Source of the DNA: Romboutsia sp. Marseille-P6047
Lineage (GTDB): Bacteria; Bacillota; Clostridia; Peptostreptococcales; Peptostreptococcaceae
Assembly (NCBI RefSeq): GCF_900604535.1
Contig: NZ_UWOT01000003.1
Location: 186,216 to 210,215 of the forward strand
Direction: 5' to 3'
Length of the DNA stretch: 24,000 nt
Shown: piece by piece, positions 452-7,461 of the stretch
How positions within the stretch are numbered: position 1 is the stretch's first letter
Layout of the letters: every line of letters begins with the position of its first letter
Position numbers and translations under genes: made by a program
Notes under the pieces: generated by a model
Database searches by the model: none
What the model was told of the DNA's origin: nothing
What the model saw: only the letters and a program-made list of their open reading frames with translations

Positions 452-505
452 ATACATATAATGTTATAATAATTATAGTATAAATATAACAAAGGGGTGT
501 TTATT

Positions 506-1510
506 ATGATAACTAATGAAGATTATATAAGATATGAACCTATGGTATATAAGATTGCTAATAAATTTAAAAATAATATATATAAATTAGAGATAGAGGA
601 TTTAGTTCAAATAGGGTCTATGGGTTTTATAAGAGGGTTTAATACATATGACGATACAAGGGATTGTAAAAAAGATACTTGGATATATTCATGTATAAAG
701 AGAGCTATATTAAGAGAATTTCAAAATTTAAAGAGAATAAAAAGACAATCTTTAGCTAATTCAATATCAATAGATACACCTATAGGTGGACTGGATGAGG
801 ATATAACAATAGCTGATACGATAGAAGATATAAATATAAATGTATCAGATGAAACTATAGATAAAATAACAATAGAAGCCTATAAAAAAGAAGTAAATAT
901 GATATTAAATGGAATAGAACATTATATTGCTTATGAAACCTTATTTACTGATAAGACATTAACTGAGGTATCAGCTTCAAAAGGAATAGAATACTCAAAG
1001 GCAAAGCATATACAAAATAAAGCATTTAGAGAATTAAAGTTTAAGAGTAAATTAATACGTTCTAAGTATATGGAGTTAAAAGAGCAAGAGGCGGAGAATA
1101 ACATAATTAATTTATATAAAGATCCTGCAAAATCAATTTATATTCATGAAATAAGCAAAGAATTAAGAAATAAATACAGACATGAGCTTGATGTTATAGA
1201 TACTATACAAACTATATTTGATGGACTAGATACATATAAGAGGAATAAGGTTATACAAGGATTTATATTAAGTTTAGATGATATTGTAGAAGCTAAAGAT
1301 CTATTTATATATAAAACTATTGCAGAAGGTAATAGAGCTTATCTAAAGGATAAATATAGCTTTAGTGATATTTATTTTGTGGAAGATAGAATAAAAAATA
1401 CTATTTCTAAAAATAAAGATTTAGTATATGATTTATGGATAAGTTTTAATGACAATTATAAAGAAGATTTAAATAATGAATTTGATAAAAGTATTATTTT
1501 CGATAGATAG
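506..1510 (+). CDS. Sigma-70 family sigma factor-like protein with a ~140 aa C-terminal extension of unknown function
   Basis: ORF 497-1510. The ATG at 506 lies 8 nt after AAAGGGG (491-497). There is a region-2-like segment (EDLVQIGSMGFIRGFNTYD...TWIYSCIKRAILREF) and a region-4-like HTH (TLTEVSASKGIEYSKAKHIQNKAFRELK). I recognise no motif in the last ~140 aa. Confidence 0.6.
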   Translation: MITNEDYIRYEPMVYKIANKFKNNIYKLEIEDLVQIGSMGFIRGFNTYDDTRDCKKDTWIYSCIKRAILREFQNLKRIKRQSLANSISIDTPIGGLDEDITIADTIEDININVSDETIDKITIEAYKKEVNMILNGIEHYIAYETLFTDKTLTEVSASKGIEYSKAKHIQNKAFRELKFKSKLIRSKYMELKEQEAENNIINLYKDPAKSIYIHEISKELRNKYRHELDVIDTIQTIFDGLDTYKRNKVIQGFILSLDDIVEAKDLFIYKTIAEGNRAYLKDKYSFSDIYFVEDRIKNTISKNKDLVYDLWISFNDNYKEDLNNEFDKSIIFDR

Positions 1511-1650
1511 AGTAGTAGATAATAGTAATAATATTTTTAATAGTAATCAAGTTACCTTAGATATGATTTTAGGACTATAAAAATATCTTCTATGGGTTAC
1601 AGAGAGGTTTTGAATAATAAATAAGGTAATTATACCCATACATAGAGTTA

Positions 1651-1692
1651 AAAAAGAAACTAGGCTAAATAAATGGCTTAGTTTCTTTTTTA
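1651..1692 (+). terminator. Rho-independent terminator downstream of the sigma-like gene
   Basis: aagaaactaggc (1654-1665) pairs with gcttagtttctt (1676-1687), with one G-U. The loop is 10 nt and a T-run extends to 1691. Confidence 0.75.
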
Positions 1693-1768
1693 TTTCGTTT
1701 CCATTTTTGGAATCGTTAATATTTATTTAATATCTAATGTTTTATTGAGGTATCAGAGATTGCATTTA

Positions 1769-1790
1769 TTACGGTAAGGTTACGGTAAGG
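1769..1790. repeat. Tandem 11-nt duplication (ttacggtaagg x2, then partial taag)
   Basis: Direct reading: ttacggtaagg at 1769-1779 and again at 1780-1790. Confidence 0.9.
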
Positions 1791-1927
1791 TAAGCGAGTC
1801 ATAGATGTATTACAACGATTAGATTAGTATAAGGTATGCTAAGTTTGTGTTTAGTAATGTTAAGGTTGAAATATGTGAGAAAATGAGCGTTTAAATTGCA
1901 GATAAAAGACTATATAATTGCTAACAT

Positions 1928-2020
1928 AATGAACGAATATAGTTGCGCACTTCCCCAATCTGCAAATTTGCAGACTGCTGATTTCTTTATCACAATGAAC
2001 ACATATAGTTGCGAACTTCC
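1928..2020. repeat. Two 27-nt direct repeats (24/27 identical, 66-nt period) flanking a perfect 14-nt palindrome
   Basis: aatgaacgaatatagttgcgcacttcc (1928-1954) versus aatgaacacatatagttgcgaacttcc (1994-2020). The palindrome ctgcaaatttgcag lies at 1960-1973, and a related half-site aaattgcaga is at ~1895-1904. Confidence 0.9.
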
Positions 2021-2137
2021 AAAACGACAAATAAAAATTACGAAACCAACTCAAATTTCAATTTCCAAAACAAACAACTCAAATAAAAAACGCGGTCAAA
2101 TGGCTATTTATCAAGCTTTAAGTATTGTAATATCAAC

Positions 2138-2159
2138 GTAGTAGTAATGTAGTAGTAAT
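2138..2159. repeat. Tandem 11-nt duplication (gtagtagtaat x2)
   Basis: Direct reading: 2138-2148 and 2149-2159. A perfect 12-nt palindrome tggagtactcca follows at 2181-2192. Confidence 0.9.
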
Positions 2160-2329
2160 AGGAACGTTGCATACTTTTTATGGAGTACTCCAAATGGCAC
2201 GCTCCAAAAGGGTGCACTTATAAAATAAGCTACAATACTGTATTTTACTAGGGTTTAAGCTTCTAAATCAATGTAGTATAATAAAAAGTATAAATTTGCT
2301 TAGTATTTAGGTTATTCTGGAGGATGTAT

Positions 2330-2977
2330 ATGAATGTCATTGATATAAAGAATATAAAAGGTTTATCAGGAAAATATTCAATAAAGTTTGGTAAAGAAAA
2401 GAAATATGTAAACATAGAGGATGATAAGATAACATTATTTGGTCGTATAAAAAGTTATGCTCATGGAGGTTGGTGTAACTATAAAATACAAGATATATTT
2501 ATATCTAAGCAAAAGACAGGTTTTGGAGAAAAGAAATTCTTTGTTTGCCCAGAATGTGGTGAGCGAAGGACTAAAATTTATTGCTATGATAATAAAGAAG
2601 TATTTAAATGTAGAAGCTGTTTAGGTAAAAATATATATTCTGAAAGATGTAATTTATATGATGGAGGAGGGGTAGCTCTTATTGAATATAAGTTTTTTAA
2701 TTTAATATCGGAGCTTGATTTAAGCGAAACCTCAAAGAAAAGACATATACCTTTTGATAGTAGATATTATGGATCATGCAAACCTAAATATATGAGGTAT
2801 GAAAAGTTTGAGTTAATATTAAAGCAATTAACAGCTTTATCAGCTATGAGAGATACTGTTATATTACAAAAGTGCTCATATAGTACTAAGTATATAAATG
2901 GATTATTGAATAGTAATGTACTAAAGAAGCTTAAGTTAATAGATATACCTGATGCTATATGGTTTCATGAAGTATAA
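2330..2977 (+). CDS. Hypothetical zinc-ribbon protein
   Basis: ORF 2324-2977. GGAGG at 2319-2323 favours the ATG at 2330. A sigmaA-like promoter lies upstream (TTTAAG, 17 nt, TATAAT at ~2254-2282). The protein has a CPEC...CRSC pair (FVCPECGERRTKIYCYDNKEVFKCRSC). No other family was recognised. Confidence 0.55.
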   Translation: MNVIDIKNIKGLSGKYSIKFGKEKKYVNIEDDKITLFGRIKSYAHGGWCNYKIQDIFISKQKTGFGEKKFFVCPECGERRTKIYCYDNKEVFKCRSCLGKNIYSERCNLYDGGGVALIEYKFFNLISELDLSETSKKRHIPFDSRYYGSCKPKYMRYEKFELILKQLTALSAMRDTVILQKCSYSTKYINGLLNSNVLKKLKLIDIPDAIWFHEV

Positions 2978-3094
2978 GTATTAATAGAATATATAGAGTA
3001 ATTATTAGAATATAAATAGTAACCATAATTATAATATTTAACATATTATAATTAAATGTAAGTTATAAGACAATAATTTAAAAAGAGGTTTTTA

Positions 3095-3123
3095 TTGTTA
3101 GACCAACGATAGGATGGTATAAT
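3095..3123 (+). promoter_or_regulatory. SigmaA-type promoter of the peptidase/cyclase/TM cassette
   Basis: TTGTTA (3095-3100), a 17-nt spacer, then TATAAT (3118-3123) preceded by TGg (extended -10). The RBS aaggaagggag (3134-3144) precedes the ATG at 3151. Confidence 0.6.
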
Positions 3124-3150
3124 CTTGTTAATAAGGAAGGGAGTGGTATA

Positions 3151-3678
3151 ATGGATTATCGTACTAGAAATATAATAAATAAATTGGCTGATGAGATTAT
3201 AGAATCTTATAAAATTACCGCACCTATTGATGATTTAGAAAGTTTTGTGGAATCTATTGGAGGTAAAGTGACAGAAAATAATCTTAAAAGTGGGTTCTAT
3301 GATGGTCGTATAACTACTCAAAATACAGATTATGAGTTTGAGATTTTTATTCCGGAAAATCAGTATCTAGAAAGAAAAAAATTCACAATAGCACATGAAT
3401 TAGGACATTTATTTTTGCATATGGGTTACCAAATAGATGATGATTTATGGGAGGAGCAACGAGGTAGAGATTACTATAGAAATGGTAGTTCAGAAGAAGA
3501 GCTTCAAGCTAATGAATTCGCAGCAGCATTATTAATGCCAAGGGATGAATATAAGAAAATAATGGAGAAATATACGGACGGAGTATCCGTTAATACAGCT
3601 GAAATTGCTAGATACTTTGGTGTATCTATACAGGCTGCAGCTAATAGAGGAAAATGGTTAGGGTATTTAGCATGGTAG
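3151..3678 (+). CDS. ImmA/IrrE-family (M78-like) zinc metallopeptidase
   Basis: 175 aa. It has the HEXXH motif in FTIAHELGHLFLH, plus the downstream EEELQANEFAAALLMP segment typical of ImmA/IrrE (DUF955) peptidases. Its stop codon overlaps the start of the next gene. Confidence 0.8.
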   Translation: MDYRTRNIINKLADEIIESYKITAPIDDLESFVESIGGKVTENNLKSGFYDGRITTQNTDYEFEIFIPENQYLERKKFTIAHELGHLFLHMGYQIDDDLWEEQRGRDYYRNGSSEEELQANEFAAALLMPRDEYKKIMEKYTDGVSVNTAEIARYFGVSIQAAANRGKWLGYLAW

Positions 3679-5156
3679 ATAAAAAACTTAATTTGGATAG
3701 TAGTCTTATAAAATCTTTGAAAGAGATACGAGAAAATACTGAAGAAGAAAGTAAGAGTAGCAATGTTATTTTATTTTTTTCGTATGATATAGTTAATTCA
3801 TCTTTATATAAAACTGTTAACTATTCAAGTTGGACTATAGTAATAAATAATATATTTAAATACGTAGATAGTTTAGTTACGGAAAGAATGCCTAATTGTG
3901 AATTATGGAGGATACTAGGAGATGAAGCCGTATATATTGTACAAATAAGAGATATTGAACAGATATATAAAAATATTGACTCAATATTTGAGATACTTTG
4001 CAAAACAAAAGAGTATTTATCTAGTGGAGAAATATTTAAAAATTGTAAGTCTGAAATAGATATAGAAATAATGAAAATGCAAAATATATTATCTATAAAA
4101 GGGTCTTCTTGGTTAGCCATTGTTGCAAATGATATTAATGCAAAGGGGTCTAACGTTGAAAATGCTTATTTGCATTATAATAATTTTGAATCAATAAAAA
4201 ATCCAGGTTTTTTTGAATTTTTAGGTAAAGATATAGATGCTGGATTTAGAATTTCAAAAGAAACAAGAGATAGAAGGTTAGTTTTAAGCTTTGAGCTTGC
4301 ATATATTTTGAAAATGAGAACAGATTACTTATCAAAGCTGAATCTAATAACATTTAGAAGACTTAAAGGTATCTGGCATGAAAAATTATATCCAATTATA
4401 TGGTTTCATGATAGAGAAAAGTTTAAAAATATATCATTTGAAGAAAGTTTTAAATTTGATGAGCTAGAAGAAGATGAGCTATCTAGGGAATATTTTAATA
4501 ATAGAAAAAAAGGTAATAGTAGTAATATAAATCAGTATATTTATGAAGATATAAATGGTGCATTAGATAAGATTTTAGAAGATAGAAATCTAAAAAACAA
4601 GATAGAAAAAATATATTCTACTATAGAGGCTACATCGGAATATCATAAAGACTTTACTAATATAATACCTTTAGAAATGCATTGTGTAGCTATTTGTTAT
4701 AAAGTAAATAAATCTGATGGATCAATACAAATATTAGTTGCAAAGAGATCTAGTAAGAAAAAACAAAATCCATCAATATGGGAGTTTGGATGTGCAAAAG
4801 CTAATTATAAAGATAGTATTATAGATACTATAAAAAATGAGTATAAAAAAGATTTTAATATAGATATTGATCTAATATGTTACGAAGATAGAAATGAAAA
4901 GCAACCTATACCTATAGCAGTATATGAAATTGAAAAAGGTTCAGATATACATAAAGGTGTAATATTCATAGCAGAATGTAAGAATGATGAATCCGTAGTA
5001 CGTATAAATGATAAACATGAAGAAGTAAAGTGGATTAATGTAGAAGAAATAGAAACTTTTAGAGATGAAGAATGTGTATTAGATTTTAAAAATACTATTA
5101 ACATAGCCTCTAAGAAAATAAAAGAAATGAGGGAAAATATATTCGAGTATGCCTAA
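3654..5156 (+). CDS. Fusion protein: N-terminal class III nucleotide cyclase-like domain (PycC/adenylate-guanylate cyclase fold) plus C-terminal Nudix-fold domain with a degenerate Nudix box
   Basis: 500 aa; an alternative start is the ATG at 3672 (ATGgTAG overlap with the peptidase stop). Cyclase-like motifs: ILFFSYD45IVNSS (compare FxDIxGFT), WRILGD90EAVYIV (compare KTIGDAxMAxF), LGKDIDAGFR199ISKETRDRRLVLS (compare GxxVNxAxRxxxxxxxxxIxVS) and ITFRRLKG239IWHEKLYPIIWF (compare LKGxxxPVxVYxL). Nudix-like: HCVAICYKV...ILVAKRS...IWEFGCAKANYKDSIIDTIKNEYKKDFNI aligns to WxxPGGxxExGExxxxAAxRExxEExGU, but REx2EE is NEx2KD. ...HEEVKWINVEEI lies at the end. Confidence 0.75.
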   Translation: MVRVFSMVDKKLNLDSSLIKSLKEIRENTEEESKSSNVILFFSYDIVNSSLYKTVNYSSWTIVINNIFKYVDSLVTERMPNCELWRILGDEAVYIVQIRDIEQIYKNIDSIFEILCKTKEYLSSGEIFKNCKSEIDIEIMKMQNILSIKGSSWLAIVANDINAKGSNVENAYLHYNNFESIKNPGFFEFLGKDIDAGFRISKETRDRRLVLSFELAYILKMRTDYLSKLNLITFRRLKGIWHEKLYPIIWFHDREKFKNISFEESFKFDELEEDELSREYFNNRKKGNSSNINQYIYEDINGALDKILEDRNLKNKIEKIYSTIEATSEYHKDFTNIIPLEMHCVAICYKVNKSDGSIQILVAKRSSKKKQNPSIWEFGCAKANYKDSIIDTIKNEYKKDFNIDIDLICYEDRNEKQPIPIAVYEIEKGSDIHKGVIFIAECKNDESVVRINDKHEEVKWINVEEIETFRDEECVLDFKNTINIASKKIKEMRENIFEYA

Positions 5157-5716
5157 AAGAAATTTTGAACAGGACGTTTTGGATGACTTAAAGTATATAT
5201 TTGAGAATGTAAACAATTGGCTTAACTTTGCGGAGTTAAAGAATGGAGCATTATTAGTATTTCTAACAACAGTCATAATTGGATTAACCCAATTAAATTT
5301 ACCTGATGATAGTAATATACTAATCAAGATATTTTATATAGTATCAATGATTGATATACTTATAAGTATAATTATATTACTACTATCTTTTGTTCCTAAG
5401 ATAAGTAATATAAAGCCTAAATATAATGCTAATATAAATTATCTTAATAAGAATCTTATATTTTGCAGATATAATCAAAGCTAGGGATTATGAAGAATAT
5501 TTAATAAATATATATGAGGATTATTACAATACAATTGTATCCAAAGAAGAGTTAAACTTAAAAGAAAAGCATTTAGCTGAGGAGATTTTTATAAATTCAA
5601 ATATAGCATCTAATAAATATAATTATTTTAAATATAGCTTATATTGCTGTTTACCTGGTATAATTTTATCAATTATACTTATATTAATGATTTATATAAC
5701 AAGCTATATATACTAA
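5149..5716 (+). pseudogene. Small 3-TM membrane protein (putative effector; possibly Pycsar-effector/SLATT-like), interrupted by a 1-nt frameshift
   Basis: The ATG at 5149 overlaps the upstream stop (ATGCCTAA). Frame 1 ends at the TAG at 5482-5484. Frame 2 is open from 5438 to the TAA at 5714-5716 and encodes ...FADIIKARDYEEYLINIYEDYYNTIVSKEELNLKEKHLAEEIFINSNIASNKYNYFKYSLYCCLPGIILSIILILMIYITSYIY. Deleting one T from the T4 run (5461-5464) joins both parts into a ~188 aa protein with three hydrophobic helices. The second part has no start codon of its own near its beginning. Confidence 0.7.
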
Positions 5717-5742
5717 ATTAAATAAATTGTTTTACATATAAT

Positions 5743-5770
5743 AAGGATTCTTGATATAGAGTCCTTTTTT
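5743..5770 (+). terminator. Rho-independent terminator closing the three-gene cassette
   Basis: aaggattc (5743-5750) pairs with gagtcctt (5759-5766), with one G-U. T6 follows at 5765-5770. Confidence 0.7.
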
Positions 5771-6506
5771 ATTACAACTATCAGAACTATAAATATCAGA
5801 ACACAATTACAATTAAATTTAAAGAAAATAAAAAGGTTAAATAAGGAATCGATTAGATATAATGAGATTCAATCTAATTTACAAAATAATAAATAGAGCA
5901 ACTTTTATAGAGATATTGAAAATATTATGATGTAAATGTAATAATTGTTTATTATTATGTTGGCCGATTGCTAAAGAGTGCATCTATTTTGATTTATAAT
6001 GTATCCTTTTTATATATTAATAAGAATATGCAAAACGATGAATAAGAATGATATTTACATAAATATTCAGATCAGAGACTTGATGTTTCAATATTATATA
6101 AATTTTACTTAGTATCATTTAGCTAGTTAATAATTATAAAGTTTATATTTGTTAGAAAATAAGAGTGGAAATAATATAGTATACATGTGTGTTATAAGAT
6201 AAAAAATAAACTTCTTAATATAATAGAATGAGAATGATACCAAGATAGATTTTAATATTTAACGTATAAAAAGTTGTAAAGCATAAATTGGATTATAAGG
6301 CACTCGCATTATATTAGTAATGTATTTATACCTTGTAATGCTTAAAATGGCATATAAAAGATATAACACAAAATAACACAATATTAACACAACTAATATG
6401 AAAAATAATAGAAAGTGCAAATTTTACATTAGCATATTGTATTAGCAAAAGTATTGATATAACTAAGTTTGATTGAATGTAGAAAAATATTAAAATTATA
6501 ATTATA

Positions 6507-6540
6507 GACTCCCCTCGTCTCCACCATTAAAATCCACGAA
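6507..6540 (+). repeat. tmRNA (ssrA) 3'-end fragment plus conserved flank (att-site remnant), copy A
   Basis: gactcccctcgtctccacca (6507-6526) reads as T-loop end, T-stem 3' strand, acceptor 3' strand CGTCTCC and ACCA of a Firmicute-type tmRNA. It is followed by ttaaaatccacgaa (6527-6540), a flank shared with copies B and C. No tmRNA 5' part (GGGGACG..., tag ORF) lies upstream. Confidence 0.65.
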
Positions 6541-6543
6541 AAG

Positions 6544-6570
6544 TCATACTAAATTTAGTATGATTTTTTT
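6544..6570 (+). terminator. Rho-independent terminator immediately after ssrA-like copy A
   Basis: tcatacta (6544-6551), loop aatt, tagtatga (6556-6563), then T7 (6564-6570). Confidence 0.75.
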
Positions 6571-6735
6571 GTATGAAAGAATTATATATTTATTAAAAAA
6601 ATGTTAACTCTATTATAACTAAGTTAAAAGTATATAAACTAAAAAAAAATATGCTAGTATGTTAAATAGGCTATGTTAAACTATTTGTTCAACATAGTCT
6701 ATTAAAAAAATAAATTTAGTAGAGGTAATTAAGTT

Positions 6736-7461
6736 ATGATAAAGAATTTTGCACATCGTGGATTTAGTGGTAAGTATCCAGAAAATACTCTTTTAGCATT
6801 ACAAAAAGCGATAGAAATAGGTAGTGATGGCATTGAATTTGATGTTCAGTTAACAAAAGACGGACAAGTTGTAATTATACATGATGAAACTATAGACCGT
6901 ACTTCTGACGGAACTGGATATGTATGTGATTATACTTATGATGAACTAATAAAATATGATTTTTCAGGACGTTATATGGGGAAAGTTGAAAAACAAAAAC
7001 TACCTCTTTTAAAAGACTACTTTGAAATGGTTAAAGACACTAACATTATTTCAAATATAGAATTAAAAAATAGCATTCTTGATTATAAAGATATAGAACA
7101 AAAAGTGTATGGATTAATAGTGGAATATGGTTTAAAAGATAAAGTTATTATTTCATCTTTCAATCATGAAAGTATAATTAGAATGAAAAAAATTGATGAA
7201 AGTATTGTATGTGGTTTTCTTGTAGATTGTACTATGTTAGATGCACCAATGTATATCAAAAAATATAATGTTGAGTGCTTCCATCCTTCAGGATATAGCT
7301 TAACAAAAGAAAAGGTAGAAGCTCTACAAAATCAAGGTATATTGGTTAATGTATGGTTAGGAAGTCATAACATGGATTACAAAGAACTAATAGATATGGG
7401 AATAGATATACTAATATCAGATAATCCAGATCAAGTAAAAGAAATTATAAGCAACTTATAG
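6736..7461 (+). CDS. glpQ: Glycerophosphodiester phosphodiesterase (GDPD family)
   Basis: 241 aa. The N-terminus FAHRGFSGKYPENTLLALQKAIEIGSDGIEFDVQLTKDGQVVIIHDETIDRTSDGTG is the classic GDPD signature (HRG...PENT...E.D...T.DG..V..HD). Confidence 0.85.
   Translation: MIKNFAHRGFSGKYPENTLLALQKAIEIGSDGIEFDVQLTKDGQVVIIHDETIDRTSDGTGYVCDYTYDELIKYDFSGRYMGKVEKQKLPLLKDYFEMVKDTNIISNIELKNSILDYKDIEQKVYGLIVEYGLKDKVIISSFNHESIIRMKKIDESIVCGFLVDCTMLDAPMYIKKYNVECFHPSGYSLTKEKVEALQNQGILVNVWLGSHNMDYKELIDMGIDILISDNPDQVKEIISNL

Follow-up and report, generated by a model that had tools for sequence, protein, structure and literature searches.

The stretch of DNA analysed here, hereafter the window, comprises 24,000 nucleotides (nt) of Romboutsia sp. 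Marseille-P6047 (contig NZ_UWOT01000003.1, positions 186,216 to 210,215 of the forward strand). An open reading frame (ORF) at positions 3654-5156 of the window encodes a protein in which a cyclase-like domain is followed by a Nudix-fold domain, and we consider it reasonably probable that this protein makes the signal in a Pycsar-like abortive-infection cassette of three genes. The cassette consists of a gene for an M78 peptidase, the cyclase-Nudix gene and a gene for a PycTM-type membrane effector, and the Nudix-fold domain would be an accessory regulator. This reading is built on the observed gene order, on the gene overlaps and the conservation of both, and on the folds and invariant residues of the protein. 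The features of the cassette are the following.

3095-3152, + strand: two overlapping promoter-like sites, TTGTTA-N16/17-TATAAT with a TG extension (predicted, consensus scan)
3136-3146, + strand: ribosome-binding site GGAAGGGAG ahead of the M78 gene (predicted, consensus match)
3151-3678, + strand: minimal M78 (ImmA/IrrE/CapP-type) zinc metallopeptidase of 175 amino acids (aa) with HELGH; its stop overlaps the cyclase start
3654-5156, + strand: cyclase-Nudix protein, 500 aa from the ATG at 3654, or 494 aa if M7 (nt 3672) is the start
3672-4457, + strand: class III-fold nucleotide cyclase domain (from Foldseek, secondary structure, invariance and hhalign of the alpha-4 motif)
3786-3788 and 3921-3923, + strand: predicted metal-binding Asp residues D45 (in FSYDIV) and D90 (in LGDE)
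4236-4238 and 4248-4250, + strand: D195 and R199 of the alpha-4 motif G191-K-D-I-D195-A-G-F-R199
within the cyclase domain: R86 and E188, a putative base-specifying pair
4458-4652, + strand: conserved helical linker between the domains (AlphaFold2 helix H264-320)
4653-5135, + strand: Nudix-fold domain with a degenerate box (from AlphaFold2, Foldseek and a profile comparison with MutT)
4779-4799, + strand: WEFGCAK of the Nudix domain
4836-4862, + strand: equivalent of the Nudix box, N395-E-Y-K-K399-D400-F-N-I403
5149-5717, + strand: disrupted gene for a PycTM-type (Pycsar/CBASS 2-3TM) membrane effector (from PADLOC, Pfam on orthologues and translation), with an N-terminal part at 5149-5484 (111 codons) and a C-terminal part at 5450-5717 in the +1 frame
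5743-5776, + strand: intrinsic-terminator-like hairpin (5743-5766) with a T tail, closing the three-gene operon

The ORF is real, and a per-residue table placed every residue cited in an earlier note on this DNA where that note had put it. The true start of the cyclase is uncertain, because the counterpart of M7 is the first residue in 113 of 120 homologues and because the upstream ATG of the ORF falls within the conserved C-terminus of the M78 gene; a start at M7 would shift the numbering used here by 6. All counts of residue conservation were taken from an alignment of these 120 cyclase-Nudix homologues, and the family was tested against Pfam and the PADLOC PycC models with 23 members. The full cyclase-Nudix architecture is present in more than 400 clusters (90% identity) of 475-520 aa, with 40-48% identity, all labelled 'hypothetical'. 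Mean pairwise identity is 0.53 in the cyclase domain, 0.48 in the Nudix domain and 0.39 in the linker. An AlphaFold2 model of the whole protein, built on the 120 homologues, has a mean predicted local distance difference test (pLDDT) score of 85.4. The Asn-to-Asp change and the retained metal Asp pair of the cyclase domain, like the degenerate Nudix box, are traits of the family and not decay.

The N-terminal domain has the class III beta-alpha-alpha-beta-beta-alpha-beta fold, as judged from AlphaFold2 and Foldseek. When the whole-protein model was searched against the PDB with Foldseek, the best 39 matches were all class III adenylyl or guanylyl cyclases, aligned to the N-terminal half. CyaC (1wc4/1wc5) was among them, with target template modelling (TM) scores of 0.75-0.80 and E-values down to 4.8e-8 over about 225 aligned columns. 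In the model, D45 closes strand E30-41 (beta-1) and D90 lies on the beta-2/beta-3 hairpin between E77-82 and E85-92, which are the positions of the class III metal site. Of the conserved motifs, DIxNS[ST] accordingly closes beta-1, GDE is on the beta-2/3 hairpin and GxxIDxGFR belongs to alpha-4, which matches the class III layout exactly. D45 and D90 are 45 residues apart; the spacing of the metal Asp residues in EaPycC and AnPycC is 44 residues (PMC11224242).

The earlier note had claimed that both metal-binding Asp residues of class III cyclases are retained and that the Arg of the VNxAxR motif is kept with Asp in the Asn position (IDAGFR). Both claims hold for the family as a whole. D45, D90 and E91 are invariant in 120/120 homologues, and G191, D193, I194, D195, G197, F198 and R199 are each found in at least 119, with D195 and R199 at exactly 119. 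Asp at the Asn position is also seen in distant cyclase-only relatives. From the Asn...Arg pair of class III enzymes (GxxVNxAxR) the family thus keeps the Arg, R199, and has D195 where the Asn is expected. The same correspondence was obtained with hhalign, using a class III set made of a typed consensus validated against the PDB and of real AC8 and AC9 segments. The only segment aligned was EFLGxDIDxGFR against ydvwGdtVNlAsR, and in this alignment the catalytic Asn corresponds to D195 and the Arg to R199.

At the base-specifying positions the protein has R86 (the Lys site, at -4 from the second Asp) and E188 (the Asp site, at -7 from the Asn). Cyclase-only relatives have K and D here, which is adenylyl-like, and the cCMP-forming EaPycC resembles the present protein in having an Arg, R142, at the same -4 position (PMC11224242). 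The R86/E188 pair is a sequence-based lead on product identity, and combined with the invariant Asn-to-Asp change it may mark a different product or chemistry.

The assignment of the C-terminal domain to the Nudix fold, also made earlier, was borne out both by the whole-protein model and by a model of the domain only. In the former, the C-terminal third matched the Nudix structure 3grn with TM scores of 0.74-0.75. The latter, covering residues 332-500 (pLDDT 88.5), gave 415 PDB matches at E<=1e-3, essentially all of them Nudix, including MutT, Ap4A hydrolases, NUDT7/11, NrtR with ADP-ribose (its Nudix domain ranks 7 among the fold matches) and MutT2 with CTP/5mdCTP. A profile of the domain found MutT (5x1x) at an E-value of 4.7e-6, and Pfam made contact through NUDIX_4 in 11/23 members and NUDIX in 8/23. 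AGS-C was considered as another identity for this domain and rejected, since AGS-C is immunoglobulin-like (Ig-like), the domain has a Nudix fold and there was no Pfam match to AGS-C.

In the earlier reading the Nudix box extended from W376 to I403 (nt 4779-4862) and its GX5E motif began at G379. The extent and the residues were correct; the first Gly was not. Profile alignment to MutT places the canonical Gly of GX5E at A381, which makes an insertion unnecessary, and the glutamate position at residue 387 (D387 in the window), which is variable among homologues. The box of the window protein reads A381-x5-D387-x7-N-E-Y-K-K-D-F-N-I and so departs from the pattern GX5EX7REUXEEXGU. That its REx2EE part is degenerate was also seen correctly, and as 0/120 homologues have a canonical one, this copy is no decayed outlier. 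The family consensus is x395 - E/D396 (118/120) - Y397 (120) - K/R - x399 - D400 (118) - F401 (120) - G/N - I, where position 399 is unconstrained (N in 33 homologues, K in 28, E in 26, and others). Two of the three REx2EE carboxylates are kept in 87/120 homologues and all three in 31/120. Elsewhere in the domain H343, C344, C348, R365, W376-E-F-G-C-A-K382, R413, P418, P420, K434-G, K454-H and D477 are invariant, with K382 counted in 118/120. E396 and D400 we take to be the counterparts of MutT E53 and E57.

The closest kin in sequence and fold are pyrophosphohydrolases of the MutT/NudG/NudI/MutT2 type (5x1x, 2rrk, 3grn, 5zr*), with which the domain shares the WEFxGxK motif and the Nudix helix. 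Their box, R-E-U-x-E-E-x-G-U, compares with x-E/D-Y-K-x-D-F-G/N-I in the cyclase-Nudix family. Unlike these enzymes, the family has lost the Glu of Gx5E and the Arg, and it has an invariant H-C-x3-C on strand 1 and a Cys in WEFGCAK. The H343-C344-x3-C348 element on the first Nudix strand (nt 4680-4697) and the near-invariant C380 of WEFGCAK (nt 4791-4793) are a separate observation; judging from the sequence pattern, they could form a metal or redox site.

Degenerate Nudix domains with regulatory functions have precedents. The NUDT9-H domain of TRPM2 is a non-catalytic Nudix sensor domain. Similarly, NrtR, which binds ADP-ribose, and the CBASS effector Cap16 (PMC10419184) are signalling or regulatory proteins carrying a Nudix domain with a degenerate box. 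In contrast to NrtR, Cap16 and TRPM2, whose Nudix domains accompany a DNA-binding domain, an effector and a channel respectively, the Nudix domain studied here is fused to a signal-making enzyme. Furthermore, it differs from the non-catalytic sensors in that two box carboxylates and the Lys are still conserved, so that residual catalysis is possible.

For the survey of loci we used one genome per species, giving 48 loci, and neighbouring genes were identified by local hidden Markov model (HMM) searches. Most loci are from gut Lachnospiraceae; Clostridium, Sarcina ventriculi, Megasphaera, Catonella, Leptotrichia and Gastranaerophilales are also represented. An M78 gene lies directly upstream of the cyclase gene in 46/46 loci with upstream DNA, and a PycTM gene directly downstream in about 38 of 45. 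Genes of the cassette overlap by 4-8 nt in the window and in the loci checked, the overlap between the cyclase stop and the PycTM gene of the window being 8 nt. The operon signals of the window are one promoter-like and one terminator-like site; terminator-like sites numbered 3 against 0.4 expected.

The M78 gene matches Pfam Peptidase_M78 (1.1e-21). In the defence-model scan the best match was PADLOC capP (8.6e-30), covering only positions 4-149 of the 242 in the profile, and RmrA models matched as well. CapP has a linker and a GAF sensor domain after its M78 peptidase (10.1101/2022.04.27.489752), and this part is absent from the present protein. Clustering of the ORFs within 1.5 kb upstream at more than 40 loci gave no conserved helix-turn-helix (HTH) or other partner, and the upstream gene in the window encodes an unrelated zinc-ribbon protein. 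Membership of CapH/CapP was therefore rejected for the lack of an HTH partner and of a GAF domain. As in CapH+CapP, ImmR+ImmA and DdrO+IrrE, an M78 zinc peptidase with HExxH heads an immune operon; unlike them, the cassette has no HTH partner and no linker or GAF part, and its peptidase gene overlaps, or is fused to, the cyclase gene. These features make the cyclase, and not a repressor, the likely target or partner of the peptidase. We infer that M78 as a direct regulator of the cyclase is the best explanation.

The downstream gene was recognised by PADLOC from its N-terminal part (5149-5484), as a CBASS 2TM effector at 5.9e-22 and as PycTM at 1.2e-10. Pfam PF18967 scores above its cut-off in the intact orthologue of locus L009 and in p40 of phage phiC2, and it was found on the neighbours of the cyclase in L001, L002, L004 and L009. 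Locus L009 is an independent metagenomic contig encoding an identical cyclase protein. Both L009 and L001 have an intact PycTM of 185 aa, and DNA alignment with them locates the disruption in the window to a 2-nt deletion in a run of six T, leaving T4 at 5461-5464. The cause is either a genuine mutation that inactivates the gene or an error of assembly in the homopolymer. Other loci have a split PycTM (L005, L020) or lack it (L016, L019/L023), a pattern that together with the window suggests recurrent counter-selection of a toxic effector. In L028 and L049, from Clostridium/Lachnospiraceae, PycTM is missing too, and its place is taken by a gene (5546-6700 and 5542-6696, respectively) for a multi-pass membrane protein of 384 aa that Pfam does not match; this protein could serve as a different effector or be a neighbour with no connection to the cassette. 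Additionally, the cyclase-Nudix gene itself is broken in two species-level genomes, in the Nudix region in L048 and in the cyclase region in L057. As these genes are frameshifted or fragmented, the whole cassette appears to decay in some lineages.

The trio is carried, at 47% identity, by the Clostridioides difficile temperate phages phiC2, phiCD27, phiCDHM19, CDKM9 and phiCD508, where it is located between the lysis (endolysin/holin) genes and the integrase/repressor region. In phiC2 (L058, 25150-36553) and phiCDHM19 (L059), as in Sarcina ventriculi (L053), PycTM is convergent to the cyclase gene. An AbiF gene is found two genes from the cassette in phiC2, and transcriptional regulators are encoded 2-3 kb upstream in phiC2 and phiCDHM19. 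Phage annotations call the three products 'metallo-protease', 'hypothetical / similar to phage LE1 ORF1 / putative Nudix hydrolase' and 'DUF5706' (the same as PycTM). The occurrence in the well-studied phages phiC2, phiCD27 and phiCDHM19 suggests a role in prophage-mediated superinfection exclusion in C. difficile, a pathogen against which phage therapy is being studied.

A profile search with the cyclase domain returned 1,794 cluster representatives (clustering at 50% identity), and 240 of these matched at E<=1e-30. Pairs of M78 and a cyclase-only protein, with no PycTM, were found on Leptospira plasmids or prophages, on a Mycolicibacterium plasmid and on a Rhodococcus chromosome (L060, L062, L063, L067/L068). 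ORF1 and ORF2 of phage LE1 are the same gene pair, and the phiC2 annotation notes 'similar to phage LE1 ORF 1/ORF 2'. Among phage protein families, phrog_6174 matches the full-length protein (8e-131) and phrog_18024 the cyclase-only form. The LE1 and PHROG entries carry only 'unknown function', 'hypothetical protein' or 'putative Nudix hydrolase'.

M78 and cyclase are fused into one protein in three independent clusters (P0349, P0355 and P0399, at loci L069, L070 and L071). The P0355 fusion, present on two contigs, has no Nudix domain; PycTM comes directly after it, and genes for a KAP-NTPase and SocA/Panacea are adjacent. Five sister clades (P0323, P0324, P0346, P0389 and P0350) have a C-terminal domain homologous to the Nudix domain (hhalign 97.5%, E 6e-12) but with erosion of both WEFGCAK and the box carboxylates. 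At the P0324 locus, M78 and a cyclase with the eroded Nudix domain are encoded together with PycTM-SH3. From these Nudix-less and Nudix-eroded systems, the conserved core would be M78 and the cyclase (with or without PycTM), and the Nudix domain an accessory. A 260-aa fusion effector, PycTM-SH3_3, is encoded at L072 (2303-3085) after a cyclase with a strongly eroded Nudix-like domain. An alphaproteobacterial branch of 263-aa cyclases (L064-L066) lacks M78. A gene for a Gcw_chp outer-membrane protein and a convergent gene for a HAMP-SpoIIE (PP2C) phosphatase flank it in every case, and the branch may have a housekeeping signalling role.

In the mechanism that we propose, the N-terminal domain would be a catalytically competent, highly divergent class III-type cyclase, probably a dimer, that makes a 3',5'-cyclic mononucleotide. 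This nucleotide would activate PycTM, which would open or oligomerise, and the infected cell would be stopped or killed. M78 would act as the obligatory regulatory partner of the cyclase, gating it by proteolysis or by direct binding on infection or stress. By analogy with regulatory Nudix proteins, the Nudix domain is most likely a clade-specific accessory that modulates the cyclase through binding of a (Mg-)nucleotide, and not a canonical pyrophosphohydrolase.

Several results weigh against this proposal. With hhalign, the cyclase domain reached a probability of 1.4-1.6% against the class III alignment, which is noise level apart from the alpha-4 motif. Pfam gave a cyclase match in 0/23 members at E<=10, the PADLOC PycC models matched neither the window protein nor any family member (0/23), and PycC structures were not among the top 50 Foldseek matches. 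Since neither PycC nor any class III cyclase is significantly similar in sequence, the catalytic assignment rests on the fold and the position of the motifs. The chemistry or the product could differ from that of class III enzymes, because the ribose-positioning Asn is Asp. No recognisable effector adjoins the M78-cyclase pairs in Leptospira and actinobacteria, and the cyclase family may therefore serve functions other than feeding PycTM. Finally, the effector gene of the window is frameshifted, so that this copy of the cassette has probably lost its killing function. The N-terminal domain might, on some of these grounds, be another palm-type nucleotidyltransferase (GGDEF-like or oligonucleotide-forming) or a scaffold, in a cassette that is toxin-antitoxin-like or prophage-regulatory. 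A PDB sequence-profile search with the cyclase domain retrieved no cyclase, the only weak match being a GGDEF domain (E 0.8) aligned over D..LGDE. The replacement of Asn by Asp would fit such an enzyme too, the best PADLOC matches of the effector are CBASS 2TM effectors (oligonucleotide sensors) and not PycTM, and M78 proteins (COG2856) are frequent antitoxin-like partners, which the RmrA matches echo. We nevertheless give this explanation little credence, given the 39 class III fold matches with 220+ aligned columns, the three motifs at class III positions in the model, the UniProt name 'Guanylate cyclase domain-containing protein' on the actinobacterial relative I4BTI8, and Pfam PycTM above cut-off in the neighbours. 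The peptidase, for its part, could be a CapP/ImmA-type transcriptional switch that cleaves a repressor encoded elsewhere, for example in a prophage, and so controls a two-gene Pycsar system. CapP is its best PADLOC match, CapH+CapP are known beside Pycsar, CBASS and other systems (PMC13373217; 10.1101/2022.04.27.489752), and the regulators upstream in phiC2 and phiCDHM19 would suit such a role. This is improbable in view of the missing HTH gene and of the missing linker and GAF part that CapP has (10.1101/2022.04.27.489752). The translational overlap with the cyclase everywhere, the fusions in three clusters and the persistence of the pair in other phyla without a Pycsar effector speak against it as well.

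The rival to be taken most seriously concerns the Nudix domain, which could be a working hydrolase with a non-canonical box, where E396, D400, K382 and a backbone carbonyl bind Mg, acting on a nucleoside triphosphate (NTP) or a nucleoside-diphosphate-X. It might then set a threshold by consuming the substrate of the cyclase or an activating ligand, or be a second, nucleotide-depleting effector. The near-invariance of E396 (E/D), D400 and K382, each at 118/120, and of E377, R365, R413, K434, K454 and H455 argues for this and counts against a purely accessory domain, as does a constraint similar to that on the cyclase (0.48 against 0.53). All three acidic positions are present in 31/120 homologues, and the nearest relatives are MutT, NudG, NudI and MutT2-type (pyrimidine) NTP pyrophosphohydrolases. 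In MutT mutagenesis E53 and E57, the presumed equivalents of E396 and D400, were reportedly the two most critical glutamates. The arguments on the other side are that no member has REx2EE, that the Arg and the Glu of Gx5E are lost with N/K/E/Q/S at random in position 399, that sister clades keep the domain with box and WEFGCAK eroded, and that PycTM-coupled systems persist without it (P0355). On balance we regard hydrolysis as rather unlikely. The earlier view of the module as a sensor or regulator and not a hydrolase is thus upheld only in part: it agrees with the freedom of position 399, the eroded sister clades and the Nudix-less systems, but the conservation of E396, D400 and K382 within the clade keeps the hydrolase a serious competitor. 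A signal-degrading role, also raised in the earlier note, fares worse. Nudix enzymes cleave pyrophosphate bonds, not 3',5'-cyclic phosphodiesters, and on this general knowledge the domain is unlikely to destroy the cyclic product.

The preferred, Pycsar-like reading implies a system both close to and distinct from Pycsar. Common to both is a class III-fold cyclase gene directly before a gene for a PycTM-family effector (PF18967; PADLOC PycTM), the latter frameshifted in the window, as well as a mobile or defence context and recurrent loss of the effector. Unlike Pycsar cyclases, the cyclase is missed by the PycC HMMs and by Pfam Guanylate_cyc, does not belong to the PycC family, and has Asp in place of the ribose-binding Asn. 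Pycsar has two genes, while this cassette has three, the overlapping M78 peptidase gene being obligatory and sometimes fused. The C-terminal domain has a Nudix fold, whereas Pycsar cyclases have no C-terminal domain and those of the Pycsar-2 clade have the Ig-like AGS-C. The cassette therefore stands outside Pycsar proper on three features: PycC family, two-gene make-up and AGS-C as the accessory domain. Of the five Pycsar-related subclades presented in the 2026 Pucsar preprint, none is described as having its cyclase fused to a Nudix domain or paired with M78 (10.64898/2026.08.12.744502). No description of a cyclase-Nudix-M78-PycTM system was found in the literature searched, although an earlier mention is possible, as Tal et al. 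2021 and several supplements lay outside the search.

Within the window, the cassette is part of a low-GC island at about 500-6700, between the genes for a Bax1-I family membrane protein and GDPD, which also contains a phage-type sigma factor and an orphan zinc-ribbon protein. The features of the island and its flanks are the following.

30-383: Bax1-I gene, flank of the island
497-1510: phage-type sigma factor (Sigma70_r2; phrog_351, 5e-24)
2324-2977: zinc-ribbon protein of 217 aa, with no family match
6736-7461: GDPD gene, flank of the island

A similar sigma70_r2/DUF1492 neighbourhood was seen in L001. Two 33-nt direct repeats, 85% identical and 66 nt apart, are located at 1922-1954 and 1988-2020 in the ORF-poor gap between the sigma-factor and zinc-ribbon genes, and may be operator-like sites. 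The region after the terminator (5770-6735) is about 1 kb long, ORF-free and with a GC content of 0.22, and contains a 30-nt palindrome or terminator-like element at 6539-6568. Rfam and tRNA scans of the window gave no matches, and a repeat scan of the window found no att-like repeats flanking the island. Elsewhere the window is ordinary chromosome, with genes for the Bax1-I family membrane protein, GDPD, a PHP phosphoesterase, a sugar ABC transporter, LacI, a phosphotransferase system (PTS) EIIBC, a GH32 sucrase, two PfkB kinases, a response regulator and a GHKL fragment.

Since Pfam and PADLOC miss a large cyclase superfamily, defence censuses of gut Firmicutes are likely to undercount cyclic-nucleotide signalling. 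A dedicated protease and a nucleotide-binding fold would provide testable handles on the activation of Pycsar-type cyclases. As a tentative and rather speculative extension, we propose a proteolysis-gated form of cyclic-nucleotide immunity, in which M78 is a sensor or gatekeeper acting directly on the cyclase, the Nudix domain provides a second, nucleotide-sensing input, and phages of C. difficile use the cassette for excluding competitors. If true, this would answer, for this branch, how phage switches on Pycsar-type cyclases.

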